DNA of 64,000 nt from a virus (IMGVR_UViG_2974596396_000001:88254-152253); one strand, 5' to 3'; shown: positions 15,749 to 51,813, counted from the stretch's first letter. Made by a program: numbers and translations. The notes: generated from the sequence alone by a model not told the origin.

Positions 15749-16213
15749 ATGGCGCGTAATACGCTGGACATCTTAAAACTTTCAGCTGTCAACGATGAGG
15801 CCAGCATTGTTGACTGTATGGTTGAAGTTCAATTGAACCAAGACAAACCAGGGATTTTCCTGGGTATCAAGGAAACGCTGAGTCGGATAGGGGTTAACAC
15901 TCGTCAAGAGCCTAACACCTTGTATCAAACGTGCCATATCTTGCATAAATTTGGCAGATATCACATCGTGCATTTCAAGCATTTGTTCATGCTAGATGGG
16001 CACTACAACGGCTTTACGCGTGAAGATGTCCTGCGTATGAATCGGATTATACGGCTTCTGGAGCAATGGAATATGGTTAAGATCTTGCATCCGGAACAAA
16101 TAACCGAAGTGGCTGACATGTCTCGGATCAAAGTTGTAAAACATGACCAAGTTTCTGAGTGGAAATTGGTTCCAAAATACACTATTCGCCCAAGTCGGGC
16201 AAAAAGCGAATAA
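15749..16213 (+). CDS. regA: RegA translational repressor
   Basis: TLSRIGV-LYQTCHILHKFGRYHIVHFK and the C-terminal EWKLVPKYTI match T4 RegA. Confidence 0.85.
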   Translation: MARNTLDILKLSAVNDEASIVDCMVEVQLNQDKPGIFLGIKETLSRIGVNTRQEPNTLYQTCHILHKFGRYHIVHFKHLFMLDGHYNGFTREDVLRMNRIIRLLEQWNMVKILHPEQITEVADMSRIKVVKHDQVSEWKLVPKYTIRPSRAKSE

Positions 16214-16229
16214 CTGGAGTCGCTATATT

Positions 16230-17099
16230 ATGACAACTACATTTAATAAAAACGTGAGATTGAATTTGGCTTTTGGTAATGCGGCTGGAGATATTACAGC
16301 CCCTGACTTCGGTAAAATTCGCAATCAGGCCAAACTGGTTCTGGAAGAGACCCGCGAATTACTGGAAGCGGCTTATTTCGACCACGAGGTGAAAATTGAG
16401 TTCACTGCATCTCCGCGAGTCCTGAAAGAACCTGCTGTTGTCGACATCAAAGACATTATGCGCCAGATTCTGGACGCTCAGGGCGACATCACAACAGTCA
16501 ATGACGGCGTGGCACACATTGCTGGTTTCAACGGCGATGAGTGCTTGCAGCGTGTTTATGCCTCCAACATGAGCAAATTTATTCGCTCAGAAGATGAAGT
16601 CGGTCCGGCACTGGAATATTATTATTCACGCGGTTTCCCAGATGGCCAGTTACGCGTTGAAGGTGAATTCCCTCAGGCATGCATCAAAGTGAATGAGACT
16701 GTGATGTGGAATGGCAAAGAATATCCGAAAGGAAAATTCCTGAAAAACATGGCTGTGTTCAAAGAGCCTGATTTCTCTGATATGCTGACGAATACCCCTT
16801 CCCGTCAGATCAATGACATCGTTGCCAGCATGGCAATTGAAGAAGGTCAGGTATTTGTTGATGATATGAACGGCGTGGCGTTGGTATCTCCAAAAACGTT
16901 GGAAGTAATTCTTTCTATGGCAGTTGAAAAATCTTCTCGACCCGTAGATGTTAACGGCCAAATTGAAAGTTATGTGCCAGCGTATATCATTAACGATACC
17001 AATATGCCTAAGCTGTGTGGGGTGTGGGGTGCTAATGTTCGTGTATACGCGTGCGCACCTGTTCAAAACACTGTGACACACCTCTCTCGCTTCGATTAA
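16230..17099 (+). CDS. Hypothetical protein; possible all-alpha (MazG-like) NTP pyrophosphohydrolase
   Basis: EETRELLEA-EVK resembles the EExxE-E-D metal-binding motifs of MazG and T4 gp56. Weak call. Confidence 0.35.
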   Translation: MTTTFNKNVRLNLAFGNAAGDITAPDFGKIRNQAKLVLEETRELLEAAYFDHEVKIEFTASPRVLKEPAVVDIKDIMRQILDAQGDITTVNDGVAHIAGFNGDECLQRVYASNMSKFIRSEDEVGPALEYYYSRGFPDGQLRVEGEFPQACIKVNETVMWNGKEYPKGKFLKNMAVFKEPDFSDMLTNTPSRQINDIVASMAIEEGQVFVDDMNGVALVSPKTLEVILSMAVEKSSRPVDVNGQIESYVPAYIINDTNMPKLCGVWGANVRVYACAPVQNTVTHLSRFD

Positions 17100-17123
17100 T
17101 ATAATCCGTTATTCACTAAACAA

Positions 17124-17150
17124 CAGAGGCTATAATGGCCTCTGTTTTTG
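17124..17150 (+). terminator. Rho-independent terminator
   Basis: CAGAGGC-TATAATG-GCCTCTG followed by TTTTT. Confidence 0.75.
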
Positions 17151-17168
17151 TATTCTAGAGAGGATACC

Positions 17169-18365
17169 ATGAAAGATAAACCATATGACATCCCATATTG
17201 CGGTGTCCGTGAAGATAAAATCAAATCAGCCAAACCTGTGCTTAGTCCGACCCATACCCGCCTGTCTTACGAATGGATGAGCGAGCGCTATAAGATCCAC
17301 GTTCGAAAGGACGTCCAGCGTCTTCCTGCTCCTTGGACCAATAATCCTATACTACGGCAGGTCAAGTTCTGTAACGTCCGGAGAGAGCACGACAGGCAGT
17401 CTCTTAACCTGATCAACAACATCATCAACAACGATGCTCTGGGTATGGCAGACAAGATGTTTAACTGCGTGCTGTTCCGCATGTTCAACCTCTGGGATCC
17501 AATTCAGGCTATCGGCGGCGCGATGACGATCAAAGACTTCGCCAAGATCAACCTTGACGCAACCCGCGAACGACTTCAGAAGTTCGAGGCCGACGGCGGT
17601 AAGGTATTCACTAATGCCTTCAACACGGGCGGCCTGAAGCAATGCCTGGCTTTCCCTGAGCTGGTTGTCAACCACAAGGAGCAACGCTTCGGTGGGATGA
17701 TGGTGAATCTGATCTACAAAGATGGTTCAACCCAGAATATGGATTATAAGGAAGCCAAGGCAATTGCTGAAGCAGAGCCGGACTTCTACACCATTGAGGG
17801 TTGGGAGCCGTACATGCCGATGCGCGTCATCCGTTCTCTGAGGGCATTCGTCAACAAGCACCCTGATTACTTCGAGCGGCTGCTGGAATGCGAATCTCCG
17901 GATGAAGTCTACCAGGCCATGTACGACGAAATCGAAGGCTTGGGTCCATTCCTGGCCTATCAGATCTGGGTGGACTTTACGTACATTCCTGAGTATCCGT
18001 TCAGTGAGAACCATTTCACCATCGCTGGACCGGGTTGCCGCGCTGGGATCGACCTGTTGTTCCTGAACAAGGACGGCATGACGCATGAAGAATGTATCTT
18101 CTGGTTGCGAGATAATCAGGACGCGGTGTACTCCCAATATGGATATGTTCGCGAGCAATTCTGGTCAGCCGAAGAGCCTTGGGATCAGTGTATGAATGTT
18201 CAACAATTAGAAAACCACTTTTGTGAATTGTCGAAATATACCCGTTGTGTAGAGGCTTTACAGCAAGGTAAAAAACCACGCGGGAAGGTTGGATACGATG
18301 GGGAAGGACAACCTAAAGCGACGACATCTGGTTCTAAAAACCTACTAAATTTATTTAAAAAGTAA
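17169..18365 (+). CDS. Hypothetical 398-aa protein, possibly a nucleotide- or DNA-modifying enzyme
   Basis: ATG with GAGAGGA RBS. No P-loop. Placed next to the replication genes. The function is unknown from sequence alone. Confidence 0.5.
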   Translation: MKDKPYDIPYCGVREDKIKSAKPVLSPTHTRLSYEWMSERYKIHVRKDVQRLPAPWTNNPILRQVKFCNVRREHDRQSLNLINNIINNDALGMADKMFNCVLFRMFNLWDPIQAIGGAMTIKDFAKINLDATRERLQKFEADGGKVFTNAFNTGGLKQCLAFPELVVNHKEQRFGGMMVNLIYKDGSTQNMDYKEAKAIAEAEPDFYTIEGWEPYMPMRVIRSLRAFVNKHPDYFERLLECESPDEVYQAMYDEIEGLGPFLAYQIWVDFTYIPEYPFSENHFTIAGPGCRAGIDLLFLNKDGMTHEECIFWLRDNQDAVYSQYGYVREQFWSAEEPWDQCMNVQQLENHFCELSKYTRCVEALQQGKKPRGKVGYDGEGQPKATTSGSKNLLNLFKK

Positions 18366-18425: not shown

Positions 18426-19349
18426 ATGTTTTATGAATTGTTGGTTTCTAAAGGCGGCAAACCGCATTTTGTCAAGAAGTATTTGAGGATGGTTCAATCT
18501 TTCAAATATTCTGATGGTGACTACACCGAATTACACCACATCCTTCCCAAGAGCATGTTCCCTGAATATTCCAAAGACAAGATCAATTTGACAAGACTTA
18601 CTGGCAGGCAACATTATCTTGCCCATGTGTGTTTGGCCTTGGCTTTCCCACACACGAGAATGGTGTATGCTGTGGTAGCTATGAGAAAGGGAGGAAGGAG
18701 AAATAAATCAGGGATTCGGTTTAATTCTCATTTGTATGAAAGTTTCAGAATTAAATTCAGTGAACAACTATCTTTACAATGGAAAGGGGTTTCTCGGTTT
18801 GTGGGTAAAGACAACCCAATGTATGGGAGAAGGGGAAAGAATAATCCCCAATATGGATATAAGAGAACTCCAGAGCAAGTCAAGAAAATTACCAAAGGAT
18901 TGATGAAAATCCATGAAAGGATGGCTTCTGATCCGGAATATAAAAGAGAAGTTTTAGATCAGCGTCGTGCCAATACGGATTTAAAGCAATTTTCTGAGCG
19001 TTCCCGCCAAGCAAAACTCGGGAAACTCAACCCAAATTATGGGAAGGACTTAACCAACTCATTCACACCAGAGCAACGCGCCAAACAGAAAGAAAACGCT
19101 CAGAAAGGCATGTTGGTTAAGATGCCCTGGGAGAAGGGTAAATGGAACCCAGAAAATGATGTATATTGGGAGAAAGCTGATCAATTCCTTGAAGCCCTGA
19201 AAACGATGAAACGTTCAGAAGCCCTCTTGTTTGTGTACGGAACAAAGGATTTGAAGGCGTTTAATGCATCTAGTGGGATCATCGAACGTTTCAATAAAGG
19301 GTGGGAACCATTAAAATGTGGTAAATGGTTAAAAAGGTACAAAGGATAA
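18426..19349 (+). CDS. HNH homing endonuclease with NUMOD-like repeats
   Basis: ELHHILPKS-HYLAH HNH core, plus repeated NPMYGRRGKNNPQYG modules. Free-standing gene. Confidence 0.7.
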   Translation: MFYELLVSKGGKPHFVKKYLRMVQSFKYSDGDYTELHHILPKSMFPEYSKDKINLTRLTGRQHYLAHVCLALAFPHTRMVYAVVAMRKGGRRNKSGIRFNSHLYESFRIKFSEQLSLQWKGVSRFVGKDNPMYGRRGKNNPQYGYKRTPEQVKKITKGLMKIHERMASDPEYKREVLDQRRANTDLKQFSERSRQAKLGKLNPNYGKDLTNSFTPEQRAKQKENAQKGMLVKMPWEKGKWNPENDVYWEKADQFLEALKTMKRSEALLFVYGTKDLKAFNASSGIIERFNKGWEPLKCGKWLKRYKG

Positions 19350-19353
19350 AGAA

Positions 19354-19578
19354 ATGAGCTGGAAATTGTTCAAACTGCGTAAAGCGACTGATGAGTTTCT
19401 TCTGAAAGCCCGTATGGAAGGACGTCTCGTGTACACTCCTTACCCAGGCACTACTCGGTTTTGCAGTACGCTGAGGAAACAGAAATCAGTTTCTGGGCCG
19501 AGACGTTTGATGAACCAGGGTATGTTGTCTTTTAACACGGGAGACCACAGACCGTGTGATGGCGGTCGGATTATCTGA
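19354..19578 (+). CDS. Hypothetical small protein
   Basis: ORF with RBS. Confidence 0.35.
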   Translation: MSWKLFKLRKATDEFLLKARMEGRLVYTPYPGTTRFCSTLRKQKSVSGPRRLMNQGMLSFNTGDHRPCDGGRII

Positions 19579-19695: not shown

Positions 19696-21714
19696 ATGGC
19701 AGAATTCAAACCCTTCGCAACGGCAGTTAATAACAACGTGCTGGCGATGTCCGCAACTGGTCTGTTCATGACCAATATCGATAAAGATGCTCTTTGGGAT
19801 CTGTATCTGGCATCTTTCCCTGCTGGTACCAACCCGCTTTACCGTGAGCGTACCGAGCACGACTGCACCTGCTGTAAACAATTCATCCGTAACATCGGCG
19901 GTGTGGTCACCATCGACTCCGACCTGAACTTAATTTCTATCTGGGACAACATTGATCTGGGTAATGAATATGACGTGGTGGCTGCGGCGCTGTCTGCGTA
20001 TGTCAAGCAACACGCAATCGTCGACGTGTACTTCAACGATACCAAGAAAGTCGGTGTTGAGTCGAATCACGAAATGAAAGACGGCAATGTCCGCACCTAC
20101 AACCACTTTCACACCGACCTGCTGGGTAGCTATGTTCTGCGTCCGGACGCAATCGCTTCGAAAAAAGGTGAAATCCGCCAGGCTATTGAATTGTTTGAAC
20201 GCGGTCTGCGTGAAATTACTCTGGAATCAGCTGAAATCGTTCTGGAACTGATTGACCAGAATTCTCTGTATCGCGGCGCAGAACACAAAGCAGCAGTGAA
20301 GGGATTTGTTGAAACCAAAAAGGCATATGAACAAGTCCCCGAATCAGCCCGTTCTCTTTGGGCATGGCATACTGGATACCGTTCAAACAATCATGTTCCA
20401 CACGGCATCCGTAACACAGTTATCGGCACTCTGCTGACTGATATCAGTGAAGGCGTGGAACTGGAAAAGGCCGTTAAGTCGTTTGAAACCAAAGTTGCCC
20501 CAGCGAACTACAAACGCCCGACGGCTCTGGTCTCCAAGTCCATGATCGAAAACGCTCAGAAAGAAGTGATTGCTCTCGGTCTGGAAGATTCGCTGGCGCG
20601 TCGTTATGCAGTTTATGACGACCTGACGATCAATAACGTTCTGTTTGCAGACCTGGCTGCTCAAAAAGCGATGGATCCATTCGCTCAACTGGCCGCCGAA
20701 GTGAAAACGCCGACCAAGTCGCTGGATAAAGTTGAAGAGATCGGCATTGACGACTTCCTGAGCAATATCCTGCCGAAAGCGCATTCAATGGAAGTGCTGG
20801 TTGAAAACTCGCATACAGGAAACCTGATGTCTCTGGTCGCTCCGGCTATCGCAGGTGCTCCTAACCTTTTCAAATGGGGCAACGGTTTCTCATGGTCATA
20901 CAACGGCGAAGTGGCCGACTCCATCAAAGAGCGTGTGAAAGCGGCTGGCGGTAAAGTCGACGGGTTCCTCCGTGTATCCCTGGCCTGGCATAACAACGAT
21001 GACCTCGATCTGCATATGTTCTTTAACAATATGGAACATGTGTACTTCCGCGATCGTCGTTCAATGACTGGTGCACATCTCGATATCGACATGAACGGTA
21101 TGGACGGCATCGACCCGAACCGCTCTCCGGTAGAAAACATCATCTTCACTGATGAAAGAAAGTTGCGTGACGGTGAATATCGTTTTGAGATTCACAACTA
21201 CAACCAACGTGAAAAGATCGACGAAGGGTTTGAAATTGAAGTTGAATACAAAGGCGCTACGCAACGTTTCAGCCACAATGGGTTAAAAGACCAGGGGCGC
21301 ATCACTGCCGTCGTTCTGACTGTTAAAGACAAACAAGTCGTTAGCATCAAGTCCGAGCTGGCGAATGTTGATAAATCCAAAGAAATTTGGGGCATTAAGA
21401 CAGCGACCTTCCAGAAGGTACAACTGGTCCTGAACTCACCGAACCATTGGGATGGTGAACAAACTGGCAACAAGCACGTCTTCTTCATCCTGGAAGGTTG
21501 TGCAAATCCTGAAGGTACTCGTGGTTTCTACAACGAATATCTGAAGCCGGAACTGGATAAACATCGTAAGGTTTTTGAAATGTTGGGTAGTAAAATGAAA
21601 GTCCAGCCGAATGAAAACCAACTGTCCGGTCTGGGATTCTCGACGACGCAACGCAACCACGTGTTCGTCAAAGTGTCCGGCGCGTTTAACCGTACTGTAA
21701 AAGTCATTTTCTAA
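19696..21714 (+). CDS. Large hypothetical protein (672 aa)
   Basis: Long ORF with GAAGAC RBS. No motif I can assign. The minus-strand ORFs inside it are spurious. Confidence 0.6.
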   Translation: MAEFKPFATAVNNNVLAMSATGLFMTNIDKDALWDLYLASFPAGTNPLYRERTEHDCTCCKQFIRNIGGVVTIDSDLNLISIWDNIDLGNEYDVVAAALSAYVKQHAIVDVYFNDTKKVGVESNHEMKDGNVRTYNHFHTDLLGSYVLRPDAIASKKGEIRQAIELFERGLREITLESAEIVLELIDQNSLYRGAEHKAAVKGFVETKKAYEQVPESARSLWAWHTGYRSNNHVPHGIRNTVIGTLLTDISEGVELEKAVKSFETKVAPANYKRPTALVSKSMIENAQKEVIALGLEDSLARRYAVYDDLTINNVLFADLAAQKAMDPFAQLAAEVKTPTKSLDKVEEIGIDDFLSNILPKAHSMEVLVENSHTGNLMSLVAPAIAGAPNLFKWGNGFSWSYNGEVADSIKERVKAAGGKVDGFLRVSLAWHNNDDLDLHMFFNNMEHVYFRDRRSMTGAHLDIDMNGMDGIDPNRSPVENIIFTDERKLRDGEYRFEIHNYNQREKIDEGFEIEVEYKGATQRFSHNGLKDQGRITAVVLTVKDKQVVSIKSELANVDKSKEIWGIKTATFQKVQLVLNSPNHWDGEQTGNKHVFFILEGCANPEGTRGFYNEYLKPELDKHRKVFEMLGSKMKVQPNENQLSGLGFSTTQRNHVFVKVSGAFNRTVKVIF

Positions 21715-21752
21715 TTGATTTTGACCACAAATTCGTAATAAGGAACAATGAA

Positions 21753-22124
21753 ATGTTTGATCAAGCAACCCGTTTAAAACTGCGTTTCAACTCTAACAAA
21801 GGTCTGCTGTCTGTTGAGCAGGTTTGGGATCTGAACCTGAATGCCCTAAACGAACTGGCGAAAGACCTCAGCCGTCAGGTGAAGGAAGCCGCCAGCGATG
21901 AAGAAGATTTCATCGGCGTGAAAAGCGCAGTCGACTCTCAGTTACAACTGCGTTTCGATATCGTGAAAGCGATCATCGGTGTTAAACTGAAAGAACGTGA
22001 CGAAAGCGCAACCGCCGCCGAACGTAAAGCGAACAACCAGGCGATCATGGAACTGATCCAGCGTAAGAAACAGCAGGAACTGGAAGGTCTCTCTGTTGAA
22101 GAACTGGAAAAACTCCTGAAATAA
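21753..22124 (+). CDS. Coiled-coil hypothetical protein
   Basis: Heptad-like charged repeats. AGGAAC RBS. Confidence 0.5.
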   Translation: MFDQATRLKLRFNSNKGLLSVEQVWDLNLNALNELAKDLSRQVKEAASDEEDFIGVKSAVDSQLQLRFDIVKAIIGVKLKERDESATAAERKANNQAIMELIQRKKQQELEGLSVEELEKLLK

Positions 22125-22145
22125 TCTGTCGGCTCCGGCCTGAGC

Positions 22146-22172
22146 AACCCCGCCGTGTGCGGGGTTTCTTTT
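22146..22172 (+). terminator. Rho-independent terminator
   Basis: AACCCCGC-CGTGT-GCGGGGTT followed by TCTTTT. Confidence 0.8.
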
Positions 22173-22183
22173 AGGTAAAGAAT

Positions 22184-22558
22184 ATGAAACCTGTCATCTG
22201 TGATTACTGCGGCCTTCCTGCCAAATACGTCAGTGGTGATGTACTCTACCCTCATCGCCCAGATCTACACAAACTGAAGTTCTGGGTATGCTCGCCATGC
22301 GACGCTCGTGTGGGTTGCCATACCCATGGGGATGGTAGACAACCTCTGGGAAGGATGGCGAATGCCGCTCTCCGTGCTGCTAAGCAGGAAGCTCATAGGT
22401 CGTTTGACCCTATCTGGAAAAGTGGGCAGAGGAGCAGGAGTGATGCTTACAGCTGGCTGGCTCATAATCTGGGGATCAAGAAGCGCGATTGCCATATCGG
22501 CTTGTTCGATATCGTCATGTGCCGTAAAGTAGTGGAGGTCTGTAAACAAATATCATAG
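22184..22558 (+). CDS. Zinc-finger protein (DUF3268-like)
   Basis: CDYCGLPA-YPHRPDL-FWVCSPCDARVGCH pattern of two C-x-x-C pairs. Confidence 0.45.
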   Translation: MKPVICDYCGLPAKYVSGDVLYPHRPDLHKLKFWVCSPCDARVGCHTHGDGRQPLGRMANAALRAAKQEAHRSFDPIWKSGQRSRSDAYSWLAHNLGIKKRDCHIGLFDIVMCRKVVEVCKQIS

Positions 22559-22566
22559 GATAACAC

Positions 22567-23439
22567 ATGACAACTCGTACTGGCATCAAACTCACTCCTG
22601 AAGTCCTGAAGTCACATATCGCTGAGGTGATTTACGAAGACCGCGAAGTCGGCGGTCACCGGGCTATCACTTGTCATTTCAAGATGGATAACGGCTTCGT
22701 CGTTCACGGCACCAAGCCCAGCACATCCATAGACCCGGCCAACTTCGATGAAGCCCTGGGCAAAGAGATTTCCTACAATAACACCTTCGACCAGCTGTGG
22801 CAGCTGGAGGCGTACCGGGCGCTTGTTGAACAAGATCTGTTGGCCAAAGCCACGGAAACGGCAGAGATCCGGATCGATCAATACGCTGTTGAACGTAGCG
22901 CCCTCTGTCCGGCCTATCACCTCGGCTTCAATGTGATGATTCAGGACGTGATGTTCAGAGCGGAAAATGGCGAGCGCTTCTTGGCGTCTTTCGTTTGTGG
23001 GCCGGATGACATGGAACTTGTTGTTGACTCTCACAACGCCAAATCTCGTAAGGCTGTTAGTGATTTCCTGCGCGCCAACTCCAAACTCGATCTCACTTAT
23101 TCGCCATTGGTTCTGCGCATCGCCAAGATTTGTCATGAAGCCAACCGCGCATACTGCAAGTCTGTTGGTGACGACTCTCAACTGCCTTGGGAACAATCTC
23201 CGGCCTGGCAGCGTGAGAGCGCTTGCAAAGGTGTTATCTTCCATCTCACTGGTGATCGTAAGCCCAGCGAATCGCATGAGAGCTGGATGGCGGAGAAGGA
23301 GGCTGAGGGATGGGTGTATGGCCCAGTCAAAGACCCTCAGACCAAGCAACACCCTTGCATGGTTCCGTATGGAGAACTCCCGGTACAACAACGCTCCAAA
23401 GATTATATTTTCAAATCCATTGTAGACTCCTTTAAATAA
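22567..23439 (+). CDS. RyR-domain protein
   Basis: The C-terminal WMAEKEAEGWVYGPVKDPQTKQHPCMVPYGELPVQQRSKD matches the RyR (ryanodine-receptor) domain consensus. Confidence 0.6.
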   Translation: MTTRTGIKLTPEVLKSHIAEVIYEDREVGGHRAITCHFKMDNGFVVHGTKPSTSIDPANFDEALGKEISYNNTFDQLWQLEAYRALVEQDLLAKATETAEIRIDQYAVERSALCPAYHLGFNVMIQDVMFRAENGERFLASFVCGPDDMELVVDSHNAKSRKAVSDFLRANSKLDLTYSPLVLRIAKICHEANRAYCKSVGDDSQLPWEQSPAWQRESACKGVIFHLTGDRKPSESHESWMAEKEAEGWVYGPVKDPQTKQHPCMVPYGELPVQQRSKDYIFKSIVDSFK

Positions 23440-23467
23440 GCTCTGAATAATATTTCAACCTGTCAAT

Positions 23468-23552
23468 AATATAATGCCCGGTTATATTCAATCGGGCATT
23501 TTATTATATTAATTGGCATCAATACCGCCTGTCGTAATATAATAGTCCCATG
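23468..23552. promoter_or_regulatory. Cluster of three TAATATAAT boxes (+,-,+) flanking an ATGCCCG/CGGGCAT hairpin
   Basis: Direct reading. Each box contains a perfect TATAAT. Upstream of the vWA operon. Confidence 0.4.
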
Positions 23553-23588
23553 TTGAAATAGTTGGGAAATATAACTCACGAGAGCCTG

Positions 23589-23765
23589 ATGACCGACAAC
23601 AAATTAAAACGCGCCGGACTTGATTGTCTTGACAATTCATTCCGTCCCAGTGATGTTCTGGTCGCCCAAATGGAAAACAACCGGGATTTCATTGAAACTA
23701 TGCTGGAGAACGCCGACGCGAACTCCAAACACTCCAAAGCCCAAAAAGGTCAAAACGATGATTGA
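23589..23765 (+). CDS. Hypothetical small protein
   Basis: Inner ATG of ORF 23562. Ends with an ATGA overlap into the vWA gene. Confidence 0.3.
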   Translation: MTDNKLKRAGLDCLDNSFRPSDVLVAQMENNRDFIETMLENADANSKHSKAQKGQNDD

Positions 23766-25974
23766 ATCATTAACATTTAAGAATGCGGTTGCGACTGTCG
23801 CGCCGTCTAACCATGTAATCGTTGTGGATATCTCCGGTTCCATGTATCGTTCACTTCCAGAAGTTCGTAAGCATCTGAAGGAGAACCTGCCTTCCCTGGT
23901 GAAACCGGAAGATACTGTGAGCATCCTTTACTTTTCATCTCGCGGTGATTTCGGAACGGTATTTGCCGGACGTCAGATTAACAGTGCAACTGATCTCAGT
24001 GAGATCAATAATCTAATTGACCGTTTCCTGAAGCCTTCTGGTTGTACTGGTTTTGTTGAGCCACTGAAACTGGCTGCGGAAACTGCCATTAGCCTGAATA
24101 AACCTGGTTATGTTAACAACCTGGCATTCATGACCGACGGATATGACAACTGCTGGCGTTCTAATGAAATCCTGGATGCCGCTGAAGTACTGCCCAAAGC
24201 GTTTGATAACATTACCTTCATCGAATACGGTTGGTATTGTAATCGCGAACTGCTGGGGCTAATGGCAGAACGTTCTGGTGCGACCCACGTATTCGCCGAA
24301 GGACAGAATGAATATCAGACCGAATTGGAAAACGTGCTGAAAACTTCTTCACCGAAAGTTGTAGTCGATGTTCCTCTGGTTTATACCCATGCCATTTATG
24401 TTGAAAATGGCGTGGCGACTGTTTTAGCTGTGCATCCTGATGAAGAGCACCCTATTGGCCACGTCAGCATCCCTGAAAGCGTTTCTCAGCTGTGGGTTGT
24501 AAACCCCAACATGATCGACCAGCTGGATAATCTGGCAGACAACCAGGCGGCATACGTGCTGGCATTCTATGGCGTGTACACCATGGACGCCGATTTGGTC
24601 TGGGCCGCGCTGAAGAAGACGGGTGACGTCCGCTTCATCAAACAGTACAGCAACTGTTTCACCAAGCAGGATTACTCCAACATCAAAGTTGATCTGACTC
24701 AGGCTATCGTAGACGAATCTCTGCGAGGAGTTGATGGCATCGATTATAATATGGTTCCGGCTGAAGACGCCACCACCATTGTTGATGTTCTGACGTATCT
24801 GGCTGAAGCAGATGTCTCTATTGTCACCAAGCATCCGCTATTCTCTTACAAGAGCATTGGGCGCGGTACTGTACAGAAAGTTGATGACACCGAAGACAAG
24901 TTGGCCGAAGAGATTGCGAATGCGACTTCTAAAGAAGAGCGTAAAGCCCTGGCGCTCAAACTGGCCGAGCACGAAGATTGGACCCCCGAATTCAATCCAG
25001 CGGATGATAAAGGGATTGTCCCGATCAGCAATTTGGTCTACAATTCAGAACGTCCTAACATCAGTGTGCAGACAGTTCAACACGGAACGGTTGTTGTGCC
25101 TGAGTTTGTACAGAAGAAATATGAACTTCCTGAAGAACTGGGAACCTGGCGTTATCGCAATTATACCATTGTCAAGGATGGCATCATCAACCTGAAAACA
25201 ATGCCTATCACTGCAGATTCTCCGATTGTTCGGGCTAAGGTGGCACAGGATTTGACTGCCATGGGCGTTCATGTGTTTGGTGGGCCGGAAGTCTTCATTG
25301 TAAATCTGGAAAGTGTCCCAATGGTTAACCGCGCCATGACAAAGAATATCAGTGCTGCTGAATTCTTTGCAGACAATGTGCGCCGTGAAGCATTGAAGGC
25401 AAAACAGAAAGTTCTGAAATTCTACCGTGATGAACTGGTTGGTAAAGGCAACGCTACTGGTCTGGCTTCAAAATATGGCAAAGAAGCGGCTGATTTCCTG
25501 TCAGCAAACGGCATTCGCGACTATGGATTTTCACCGAAGACTTCTTCTGTAGAATCAACCGATGTCTATATGAGTCGTGAATTGAATGTGAAAATCAAAG
25601 GCGCATCTTCACTGCCGAGCATCGCGTCTGTTATCAAAAAACAGACGGACGGTAAAAAACTCAATGTCGCTGATCAGCTGATCGCTAATGCCCTGGCAGA
25701 ATACAATGCGTTTGTTAAATCGCCGATGATCACCAGCGTACCGGAAGAGACTCAGAAAAAGCTGATCGAAAGTTGGATCGGTGACGCAGCAAAAGCGGCC
25801 ATTAACGAAGTCCGCTCTCTGAACAAAACGCTGTCCAAGGTAGTTTATGGGATTGTTGCAGGCCATGGTTGGTTTACCGACCTGGATTTGGAAGAATCCA
25901 CTATGGATGTGGAAGTTGATGGGGTGAAATACACCGTCACTGCCGAACTGGCTGAAAAAGAAGTCAAAATCTAA
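23758..25974 (+). CDS. von Willebrand factor A (vWA/MIDAS) domain protein, 738 aa
   Basis: MIDAS VVVDISGSMYRS and AFMTDGYDN. Start placed at ATG 23758 (ORF 23620 extends spuriously upstream). Confidence 0.65.
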   Translation: MIESLTFKNAVATVAPSNHVIVVDISGSMYRSLPEVRKHLKENLPSLVKPEDTVSILYFSSRGDFGTVFAGRQINSATDLSEINNLIDRFLKPSGCTGFVEPLKLAAETAISLNKPGYVNNLAFMTDGYDNCWRSNEILDAAEVLPKAFDNITFIEYGWYCNRELLGLMAERSGATHVFAEGQNEYQTELENVLKTSSPKVVVDVPLVYTHAIYVENGVATVLAVHPDEEHPIGHVSIPESVSQLWVVNPNMIDQLDNLADNQAAYVLAFYGVYTMDADLVWAALKKTGDVRFIKQYSNCFTKQDYSNIKVDLTQAIVDESLRGVDGIDYNMVPAEDATTIVDVLTYLAEADVSIVTKHPLFSYKSIGRGTVQKVDDTEDKLAEEIANATSKEERKALALKLAEHEDWTPEFNPADDKGIVPISNLVYNSERPNISVQTVQHGTVVVPEFVQKKYELPEELGTWRYRNYTIVKDGIINLKTMPITADSPIVRAKVAQDLTAMGVHVFGGPEVFIVNLESVPMVNRAMTKNISAAEFFADNVRREALKAKQKVLKFYRDELVGKGNATGLASKYGKEAADFLSANGIRDYGFSPKTSSVESTDVYMSRELNVKIKGASSLPSIASVIKKQTDGKKLNVADQLIANALAEYNAFVKSPMITSVPEETQKKLIESWIGDAAKAAINEVRSLNKTLSKVVYGIVAGHGWFTDLDLEESTMDVEVDGVKYTVTAELAEKEVKI

Positions 25975-25982
25975 TTTCAACT

Positions 25983-26007
25983 GGCGGGGAAACCCGCCTT
26001 CATTTTG
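25983..26007 (+). terminator. Rho-independent terminator
   Basis: GGCGGG-GAAA-CCCGCC followed by TTCATTTT. Confidence 0.7.
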
Positions 26008-26017
26008 AGATATGCTT

Positions 26018-26329
26018 ATGTCAAACAAACCAACTTATGTTGAAGTGATGCGTGTTCTGGCTCAGTACGCTTGTGACAACCTGAACATGGAAACTTGGCG
26101 CAATGGGGATCACAAGGACAAGTTTGATAACATTGATGATAATATCGATGCTTTAGCGCCGTTACGGGTTAAGAATGATCTCGGCGGTGACGATCTTGAC
26201 ATGATTGAGCTGGTCATGGAAATCGAAGAAGAGTACGATGTAGAAATTAGTGACGAGTGGGTGGGTAAACATGGAGATGATCCTACCCTCGGAGAGTTAG
26301 CTGAACTCGTCGTTGTTCTCTGCAAATAA
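26018..26329 (+). CDS. Acyl carrier protein homologue with the active-site Ser replaced by Asp
   Basis: DLGGDDLDMIELVMEIEEEYDVEISDE aligns with E. coli AcpP [27 protein letters not shown]. The phosphopantetheine Ser corresponds to Asp59 (codon GAT, 26192-26194). Confidence 0.7.
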   Translation: MSNKPTYVEVMRVLAQYACDNLNMETWRNGDHKDKFDNIDDNIDALAPLRVKNDLGGDDLDMIELVMEIEEEYDVEISDEWVGKHGDDPTLGELAELVVVLCK

Positions 26330-26700: not shown

Positions 26701-26759
26701 TTCTATAAATTATGGCGGGGTATGATTACCCCGTCGATTTGAAATGCAGGAACTATACC

Positions 26760-27215
26760 ATGACTCGCATCAATGTTATTCCCGTTGAATCTCTTTGCGA
26801 CCAACACCTCCTTGCCGAGTATAAAGAACTTGCGCCTGTTGTCCTTAACGTGGTGAATGGAAAACGCCGTAATCTCAAGGGCGCTCCAAAGCAGTACAAA
26901 CTCAACGAAGGTCATGTGCTGTTCTTCCGCGACAAACTCATTTATCTGATCGAGCGTTACGATCAGCTTGTTGCCGAACTGATTTCTCGTGGGTATGTTG
27001 TCAACTATCCTTCGCTCCGCAATCAGGTGACGTCCGACAATCGACAGGAACTCGCGATCTATTTGAACGATTACCAACCGACCCAGGCCGCAGTAGAAGA
27101 GAATGCCGAGCGCATTGTCGAACGTCTGAATGGCATGGGCAAGATCACGTATAACAGAACACCAGTAGATTCATCCTACATGGTGAACGTTATGAAACAA
27201 ACATTCCAATTTTGA
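26760..27215 (+). CDS. denV: Endonuclease V (pyrimidine-dimer DNA glycosylase) DenV
   Basis: MTRINVIPVESLCDQHLLAEYKELA-NGKR-GHV-FF-DKL is collinear with T4 DenV, [24 protein letters not shown]. Confidence 0.85.
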   Translation: MTRINVIPVESLCDQHLLAEYKELAPVVLNVVNGKRRNLKGAPKQYKLNEGHVLFFRDKLIYLIERYDQLVAELISRGYVVNYPSLRNQVTSDNRQELAIYLNDYQPTQAAVEENAERIVERLNGMGKITYNRTPVDSSYMVNVMKQTFQF

Positions 27216-50897: not shown

Positions 50898-50973
50898 TCT
50901 GATATACAGGTATGCTGGGCGTGTCGCTTAATTAAAGGTGTCGACAACCCCTGTAGATATAGGAAGGTTCAAC

Positions 50974-51813
50974 ATGCAATCTGCGTCTAAAGTTGTATCC
51001 ATGAAGCCAGCGAAGACAAAATCTGCTCGTAAGAAAGACACCATCCAGAAGGAAGAAGACTGGATGAAGTTTTCCAAAGGCGATTTCAAAATTGCTCCGT
51101 TCAATGGCCTCTCAGAAAATCAGAACCTCGCATATCAATCCGCACTCAATGAACATCTCACTATCGCTATCGGTCCGGCAGGTACAGGCAAATCCTATTG
51201 TGGTGCATCTGCTGCAGCAAAACATCTGATTGACAAAACCATCAACAAGATTATCATCACGCGTTCTCCCCTTCCAACTGGCACCACAGCAGGGTTCCGG
51301 CCTGGTGATACATATGAAAAGTTGATGCCTTATTTGATGCCGCTCATACAGACATTCAAAAAGGTTCTCAAAACAGATACGGGTTCCGACGGTTTCTTCA
51401 ACTATCTGTGGGAGAAACGCATCATAGAAATTCAAGACCTTGAAACTGTAAAGGGGATGACTTTCGATGATTGTTTCCTGATTATCGAAGAGGCGCAGGA
51501 ATGCGATATGGAGCAGCTGAAGAACTTACTGACCCGTGCTTCAGATTCTTCGTACATCTTCGTGAATGGAGATATCAAACAGTCTAACAAGCGACTGCGT
51601 GACAGTGCGTTACAGACGTATGTGGATTCCTTTAAAGACTTCAACAATAAGCTGGAAACAGGTTCCTTGCAAATTGACGGTGTAGAAATCGGAGATGAAT
51701 ATCCAGAGTGGGTTCAACCATTCAGCATCATCGAATTCGATAAGTCTGATCGTAATGGTCGCGGCAACTTCACCCGCCTGATGTTAGAAATTAACGACCT
51801 GTACAACATTTAA
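50974..51813 (+). CDS. phoH: PhoH-like ATPase
   Basis: Walker A GPAGTGKS and the PhoH block IIEEAQE. AGGAAGG RBS. Confidence 0.8.
   Translation: MQSASKVVSMKPAKTKSARKKDTIQKEEDWMKFSKGDFKIAPFNGLSENQNLAYQSALNEHLTIAIGPAGTGKSYCGASAAAKHLIDKTINKIIITRSPLPTGTTAGFRPGDTYEKLMPYLMPLIQTFKKVLKTDTGSDGFFNYLWEKRIIEIQDLETVKGMTFDDCFLIIEEAQECDMEQLKNLLTRASDSSYIFVNGDIKQSNKRLRDSALQTYVDSFKDFNNKLETGSLQIDGVEIGDEYPEWVQPFSIIEFDKSDRNGRGNFTRLMLEINDLYNI

Follow-up and report, generated by a model that had tools for sequence, protein, structure and literature searches.

The stretch analysed here is a window of 64,000 nt on one strand (IMGVR_UViG_2974596396_000001:88254-152253), and all coordinates refer to this whole window. 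It contains a 6.3-kb block at 19696-25974 whose five genes had been predicted to act as one novel functional system. Our analysis points to a different organisation: with a probability of roughly 0.8, the region is a mosaic put together from three accessory units, each independent of the others, which lie in the replication cluster, between the 5-hydroxymethyldeoxyuridine (5-hmdU) DNA kinase gene and the genes of the acyl carrier protein (ACP) and DenV. The units would be a DUF8224 protein with its 123-aa partner (unit 1, 19696-22124), a slot with a DUF3268 protein and an RyR-domain protein (unit 2, 22184-23439) and a 58-aa open reading frame (ORF) with a vWA protein (unit 3, 23589-25974). We favour a mosaic because the units are distributed independently, internal terminators are present and the middle unit is freely replaced.

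The five ORFs of the original prediction were all found at their positions and in one orientation, and Pfam confirmed the DUF3268, RyR and vWA domain calls. The terminator that had been placed at 25983 was also recovered, and terminators are annotated in phage Maynard at the positions equivalent to this hairpin and to those at 22146-22166 and 23473-23500. However, the block had been described as a single terminator-bounded unit, and this did not hold: the latter two strong hairpins lie inside it, and the second is followed by a promoter-like site, called by consensus match only (Table 1). The internal terminators and the promoter-like site are predicted to set the units apart transcriptionally. 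Both internal hairpins, the promoter-like site and two short ORFs, of 58 aa (23589-23765) and 74 aa, had been overlooked.

The block matched 243 phage records. It is 100% identical to Salmonella phage Se-H and 90-96% identical to many Kuttervirus genomes (Ackermannviridae), and 164 Salmonella-phage records match it over its whole length; the window belongs to a Salmonella Kuttervirus phage. Within the Ackermannviridae, the middle genes were found deleted, truncated or replaced, and Dickeya phage Ds9CZ keeps the vWA gene and has lost unit 1. Outside the family, neither a vWA nor an RyR gene was found beside the DUF8224 cassette. RyR proteins occur alone, without the other units, in phages CB1 and TG1, the latter a T4-like Yersinia phage, and vWA orthologs lie among small early genes, without DUF8224, RyR or AAA+ genes, in GAP161, Internexus, RL38J1 and a 160-kb metagenome contig. 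The original prediction had itself named synteny in relatives as the measure of a single system, and by that measure the five genes come apart, their pieces occurring separately outside the Ackermannviridae. Its statement that they have no T4 counterpart is correct for T4 itself, but not for T4-like phages, in which orthologs of the vWA protein (GAP161/RB16-type) and RyR-domain proteins (TG1) are present.

Unit 1 combines a 672-aa protein, in which no motif had been recognised before, and a 123-aa protein that had been regarded as a coiled coil. Searches of Pfam, NCBIfam, PADLOC and PDB with sequences and profiles returned nothing for either protein, the Pfam library used for the 672-aa protein being one without the PF26675 model. 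The partner has no Pfam family and no source name, and a crude heptad test gave no support for a coiled coil. PF26675 is precomputed for a 97%-identical homolog of the large protein and for 118 of 119 other listed homologs, the exception being a 452-aa fragment; by transitivity, the 672-aa protein is near-certainly a member of DUF8224. The label 'putative DNA-directed RNA polymerase', which this family carries in OL615011 (Gloob), OL615013 (ChubbyThor), NC_048656 (BIS47) and the Sajous1 proteomics table, was not supported by sequence, profile or fold searches.

For the 672-aa protein, a database search yielded over 5,800 homologs, with full-length identities that are typically near 50%. In tblastn, the protein was matched in 557 phage records, which span the Ackermannviridae, Vequintavirinae relatives, N4-like Schitoviridae, phiCbK-like siphophages, Bacillus Herelleviridae, Pseudomonas phage Lu11, and Microcystis and Cellulophaga phages. 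The cassette of DUF8224 and partner was found in at least seven phage lineages (Ackermannviridae, Schitoviridae, Vequintavirinae, phiCbK-like phages, Herelleviridae, Alteromonas phage AD45-P1 and Pseudomonas phage Lu11), and the identity of DUF8224 remains at about 40-50% across enterobacterial phages, Bacillus/Caulobacter phages and actinomycete chromosomes. In every fetched locus (L numbers below), a gene of 123-140 aa homologous to the window partner lies directly 3' of DUF8224 (pairwise E 1e-17 to 1e-28). Using a hidden Markov model built from nine partner sequences, we found the partner directly downstream of DUF8224 in 95/95 evaluable loci, namely 12/12 phage/metagenome loci, 3/3 further metagenome contigs, 79/79 evaluable bacterial loci and Erwinia phage Bue1.

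The bacterial scan, with one genome per species, returned 130 relatives, of which 80 loci were kept. Most belong to Micromonosporaceae (Micromonospora, Actinoplanes, Salinispora and Dactylosporangium), and the remaining ones to Myxococcota, Bradyrhizobium, Sericytochromatia and several metagenome-assembled genomes. Bacterial DUF8224 proteins are about 40% identical to the phage protein, e.g., those of Micromonospora sp. ATCC 39149 (L065, 6001-8435) and Enhygromyxa salina (L031). No gene other than the partner was common to more than nine of the 80 bacterial loci when a conserved neighbour was sought; the cassette is flanked by ordinary chromosomal genes, an IS481 transposase, PhoD, ABC ATPases and regulators. 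Since these flanks vary and are not prophage genes, DUF8224 and its 123-aa partner are recognised as a self-contained, horizontally mobile, obligate two-gene cassette. In Ds9CZ, the first 89 codons of DUF8224 are left (L015, 3740-4006) and the whole partner gene is lost, a joint loss which indicates that the cassette is dispensable in the laboratory.

Among 121 phage and bacterial DUF8224 sequences, 96 positions are at least 97% conserved. They include a candidate metal site (D56, C57, C60 and H137), several Arg/Tyr motifs, an acidic cluster (N433, D435, D436, D438, D463, D465, N467, E480 and N481) and a C-terminal set (S581-N583, H594, R609, N613, E614, H623 and E628). The central domain has the beta-sandwich fold of TerD, which it shares with the TerD family (K. 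pneumoniae TerD, 2KXT; SCO6318, 2QZ7) and with DUF2135 (YfaP-like) proteins; a Foldseek search of the DUF8224 model against PDB gave no significant match. In contrast to TerD, the 672-aa protein consists of this domain to only about 20%, with no PDB match for the remaining domains; Pfam TerD does not match DUF8224, and the context is not a ter operon. The conserved acidic cluster is a candidate counterpart of the Ca sites of TerD. No relation between the DUF8224 and vWA families was found by hhalign.

It is worth noting that a MoxR-like ATPase and a DUF2201 metallopeptidase/vWA protein are encoded as a pair upstream of the cassette in two podophages, adjacent to it in AD45-P1 (L009, 2340-4966) and about 2.2 kb away in Pokken (L005, 2551-4763). 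We take this pair to resemble N4 gp24/gp25, and it is probably a part of that shared backbone and not a specific association.

The two proteins of unit 1 may work jointly as a metal-dependent enzyme or sensor, with the Cys/His/Asp residues (D56, C57, C60, H137) and the Ca-type TerD site as candidate sites. They would act on a substrate that distant bacteria share, and in phages the cassette would serve to take over the host or to counter its defences. We give about even odds to the fuller statement that the cassette is an undescribed two-protein system, exchanged among at least seven virulent phage lineages and developmentally complex bacteria (Micromonosporaceae, Myxococcota, Sericytochromatia and Bradyrhizobium), with a multi-domain metal-dependent enzyme or sensor, which carries a TerD-like Ca/ligand module and two domains with no relative of solved structure, as its large subunit, and directed at a universally conserved target in phage-host or inter-element conflict. 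The evidence covers the obligate pairing, mobility and extreme conservation; the activity is what we infer.

The first gene of unit 2 encodes a DUF3268 zinc-ribbon protein matched by PF11672 over its full length (E 4.1e-38, 130.9 bits against a cutoff of 28.4). Maynard, moki and Bue1 have an intact copy; the gene is frameshifted in Gloob and absent from rabagast and Ds9CZ. The intact moki gene (L014, 4192-4593) is unannotated in its GenBank record, while that of Gloob extends over two reading frames (L002, 8436-8859), which reflects a frameshift or a sequencing error. The second gene encodes a 290-aa protein whose PF02026 score is above the gathering threshold. Phage rabagast has neither gene of the slot. 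In moki-type phages, the ortholog of the 290-aa protein ends just before the H-x2-W core of the RyR domain, and in Agtrevirus Gloob, a NARP1-like pair, 31% and 42% identical to the NARP1 genes of mycobacteriophage DyoEdafos, takes the place of the RyR gene. Ds9CZ has an ORF with the gp49 domain only and a 110-aa Namat/NAMPT fragment (L015, 4857-5189), so that both the cassette and the NARP1-type slot are decayed in this phage. The RyR core was found at 95% identity or more in only 67 phage records, mostly of Salmonella phages. Because relatives delete, truncate or replace the genes of this slot, it appears to be a position at which countermeasures against NAD-based immunity are readily exchanged; unit 2 would thus be a swappable counter-defence slot.

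The original prediction held RyR domains in phages to be poorly understood, a statement overtaken by a May 2026 preprint in which phage RyR-domain (PF02026) proteins degrade or sequester the cyclic ADP-ribose (cADPR) signals of Thoeris (Lopez Rivera et al., bioRxiv 2026, PMC13232231). RyDEP, the 138-aa gp78 of DyoEdafos (PDB 35TM), has a catalytic dyad H75/D117 and the ligand contacts W78/H100, while homologs from a Pectobacterium and a Ruegeria phage, which also retain the catalytic and ligand residues, act as nanomolar sponges; both kinds rescue phage from Thoeris (PMC13232231). In phmmer searches, the 290-aa protein matched RyR repeats (E 1e-19) and the RyDEP chain 35tm_A (E 4e-11), and in BLASTP it is 36% identical to DyoEdafos gp78 over 88 aa (E 8e-15), with H237, W240, H262 and D279 aligned with H75, W78, H100 and D117. 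The same four residues are present in the Bue1, CB1 and TG1 homologs. The RyR domain of the window shares 59% identity with the one in Pectobacterium phage CB1 and 43.5% with the one in Ruegeria phage V21, two proteins that may be the homologs assayed in that work (PMC13232231).

On the basis of these alignments, the RyR protein is assigned as a new member of the just-described anti-Thoeris family, and most likely a cADPR sponge or glycosidase. It would bind the 2'/3'cADPR signals made by Thoeris TIR proteins and then either sequester them, as the Pectobacterium and Ruegeria phage homologs do, or hydrolyse them to ADP-ribose; in both cases the activation of the effector would be prevented. It shares with RyDEP the PF02026 domain, an identical H-x2-W-x21-H-x16-D pattern, and an early, non-structural gene in the slot that holds NAD-immunity countermeasures in relatives. 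However, it is a protein of 290 aa with an additional N4 gp49/Sf6 gp66 domain and a linker, compared with the 138 aa of RyDEP, and its gene stands outside any NARP1 operon; the NARP1 association is that of the founding member and not a strict requirement. The NARP1 operon (Adps and Namat), which reconstitutes NAD+, fills in Gloob the exact slot of the DUF3268 and RyR genes; in contrast, neither Adps nor Namat was found beside the RyR gene or elsewhere in the window, and Ds9CZ keeps a fragment only.

In unit 3, the 58-aa ORF, annotated as Maynard_86 and rabagast gp053, would be translationally coupled to the vWA gene. The phages moki, Gloob and Ds9CZ carry homologs immediately 5' of vWA (E 4e-15 to 5e-9), and the ORF is conserved at this position in Kuttervirus, Agtrevirus and Limestonevirus; no homolog was found at the vWA loci of T4-like and Rhizobium phages. 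The vWA domain has the Rossmann-like fold. The metal ion-dependent adhesion site (MIDAS), which had been called intact, is conserved across 48 homologs as a complete DxSxS...T...D motif, with D24, S26 and S28 nearly invariant and T97 and D127 invariant. Full-length orthologs, 48% identical, occur in T4-like Pseudotevenvirus (GAP161/RB16-type) and in Klebsiella/Cronobacter T4-like phages, and more distant relatives in Bacillus and Rhizobium phages. A profile search returned 979 clusters (50% identity) at E<=1e-30, nearly all of 680-820 aa and matched end to end; ten sampled clusters came from metagenome contigs of up to 375 kb with no informative names.

That no AAA+ partner is visible for the vWA protein was borne out: phmmer with a phage MoxR query found nothing in the window at E<=1, and the only long ORF with a G4xGK[ST] Walker A motif is a PhoH-like ATPase (50932-51810, PF02562 E 6e-39), which is not a MoxR-class partner. 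Likewise, no MoxR gene was found beside the vWA ortholog in four other phage lineages. The protein resembles the members of MoxR AAA+/vWA pairs (NorQ/NorD, CbbQ/CbbO and N4 gp24/gp25-like DUF2201) in its intact MIDAS, and differs from them in having no MoxR-like ORF in the 64-kb window. The nearest proteins with a vWA domain and a beta-sandwich are ITIH1 (6FPY), ArnB (8S05/5A8J), a Catenulispora vWA protein (4FX5) and the Sec23/24 trunk. In vWA/MIDAS chemistry, the metal site clamps an acidic residue of a protein ligand. The phage protein is pictured as a cytoplasmic, non-virion one, which by this chemistry would grip an acidic residue of its ligand through the metal site, and would need no ATPase.

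Several observations weigh against the mosaic. All genes of the block are co-oriented and terminator hairpins can leak; moreover, the order DUF8224, partner, DUF3268, RyR, vWA is kept in Bue1, with proteins about 50-66% identical, and functional interplay within the Ackermannviridae is possible because the five-gene order is old there. The proximity of a TerD-like domain to a vWA protein recalls the bacterial Ter clusters (TerD with TerY/TerF). As regards the RyR protein, most of the tested RyDEP homologs did not hydrolyse cADPR, and 2/8 did not bind it (PMC13232231). The adjacency and common orientation of the genes, their conserved order from Kuttervirus to Bue1 and the missing partner ATPase of the vWA protein would also suit a single system of five genes, such as a complex for defence or anti-defence with the vWA protein at its core. 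Nevertheless, we regard that as highly improbable: two internal terminators divide the block, in close relatives the middle genes have been lost, cut short or exchanged, Ds9CZ retains the vWA gene without unit 1, and outside the family each unit was found without the others, the missing co-occurrence largely refuting a common system. That the large proteins are virion, internal or assembly proteins has less still in its favour and is extremely improbable. MoxR-vWA pairs are assembly chaperones in other viruses, a MoxR and DUF2201-vWA pair precedes the cassette in Pokken and AD45-P1, and two GenBank records label the vWA protein as 'minor tail protein'. This label was ruled out by the gene position and by virion mass spectrometry. 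[quoted passage not shown] The DUF8224 cassette is also found in bacterial chromosomes, away from phage genes.

Two further explanations concern the role of the DUF8224 protein. The cassette might belong to RNA (tRNA) damage and repair biology, since RtcB is encoded directly upstream of it in Bradyrhizobium sp. Tv2a-2 (L034, 4484-5941) and directly upstream of an N-terminal-only DUF8224 relative of about 540 aa in Rhizobium phage B1VFA (L012, 3452-4885). In Stenotrophomonas phage AXL1, an N-terminal-only relative is followed by one hypothetical gene and then by polynucleotide kinase and ligase genes, locus L003 has an RNA ligase within 3 kb, and the cassette precedes tRNA clusters in Pokken and AD45-P1. 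We consider this unlikely: when an association with RtcB, RNA ligase and polynucleotide kinase was sought, just 2 of about 95 loci were found to have RtcB, other repair genes showed no recurrence, and no nucleic-acid-binding fold was detected. The other explanation is a Ter-like module, in which the TerD-like domain of DUF8224 and a TerY/TerF-like vWA protein would cooperate to exclude superinfecting phages, as in tellurite-resistance/phage-exclusion clusters; such a role in superinfection exclusion was reportedly proposed for jumbo-phage Ter genes by Iyer et al. in 2021. However, DUF8224 is not accompanied by the vWA family outside the Ackermannviridae, and what always goes with DUF8224 is the 123-aa protein, not a vWA protein. 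Pfam TerD gave no match, and DUF2135 matched weakly in 2/42 members. TerB, TerC and TelA were not seen among the annotated neighbours; none of these or TerY was annotated or detected near the cassette in 15 phage loci, and the 80 bacterial loci have no recurrent neighbour. A Ter-like module is thus very unlikely.

Table 1. Predicted features of the block and its flanks in the 64,000-nt window.
Feature	Position	Strand	Remarks
RegA	15749-16213		upstream flank
MazG-like pyrophosphatase	16143-17099		upstream flank
5-hmdU DNA kinase	17148-18365		PF18723, E 3e-83
HNH/NUMOD homing endonuclease	18426-19349		between 5-hmdU DNA kinase and DUF8224 genes
74-aa ORF	19354-19578		travels with the homing endonuclease; absent from the original prediction
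DUF8224 (PF26675), phrog_1735	19696-21714	+	unit 1, large subunit, 672 aa; TerD-like beta-sandwich at about aa 420-555
phrog_2018 protein	21753-22124	+	unit 1, small partner, 123 aa; phrog_2018 E 2e-47
Terminator-like hairpin	22146-22166	+	closes unit 1; 8-bp stem, 6 GC pairs, T-rich tail
DUF3268 zinc-ribbon protein	22184-22558	+	unit 2, 124 aa; PF11672, phrog_1934
RyR-domain protein	22567-23439	+	unit 2, 290 aa; N-terminal N4 gp49/Sf6 gp66 (PF13876, E 1.5e-11), C-terminal RyR/R12 (PF02026, E 1.9e-10)
Terminator-like hairpin	23473-23500	+	closes unit 2; 11-bp stem, T-rich tail
Sigma-70-like promoter candidate	23513-23540	+	unit 3; TTGGCA, 16-nt spacer, TAATAT; 9/12 consensus matches
58-aa ORF	23589-23765	+	unit 3; stop overlaps the ATG of vWA
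vWA/MIDAS protein, phrog_2426	23758-25974	+	unit 3, 738 aa; vWA and beta-sandwich, then about 450 aa of no recognised fold
Terminator-like hairpin	25983-25998	+	after the vWA gene; 6 GC pairs, T-rich tail
ACP	26012-26329		downstream flank
DenV	26712-27215		downstream flank

In the annotated relatives, the gene order around the block is clamp, clamp loader, RegA, MazG, 5-hmdU DNA kinase, the block, ACP, DenV, helicase, RNase H and late sigma factor. The homing endonuclease and the 74-aa ORF (18426-19578) occupy the same position between the kinase and DUF8224 genes in rabagast; in Maynard, the endonuclease is upstream of the kinase, and in Gloob none is annotated there. This segment is a mobile intron-less homing element that moves around the locus. 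A thymidine-hypermodification pathway is known from ViI-like phages, and the MazG-like and 5-hmdU kinase genes (16143-18365) fit it; no evidence was found for a link between either of them and the five genes. Scanned with Rfam, the whole window gave no match, the DUF3268 RNA motif included, and the literature yielded nothing relevant on DUF8224, on TerD with anti-defence or on Kuttervirus transcriptomes.

The results replace a false 'five-gene system' with three testable units. Among the proteins of the block, only the RyR protein would join a family of described function. The large family of solo vWA/MIDAS proteins shows that phages can maintain a vWA protein without a MoxR ATPase. Kuttervirus is a widely used biocontrol group against Salmonella and E. 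coli O157. Among the Salmonella records of this genus, about 40% appear to carry the anti-Thoeris RyR gene, in the slot that NARP1 fills in other Ackermannviridae, and its presence there may be a useful predictor of host range on strains bearing Thoeris or NADases. The cassette of DUF8224 and its partner is among the more conserved phage 'dark matter'; with an obligate partner and invariant residues as an experimental handle, it is the part of the block most deserving of follow-up.

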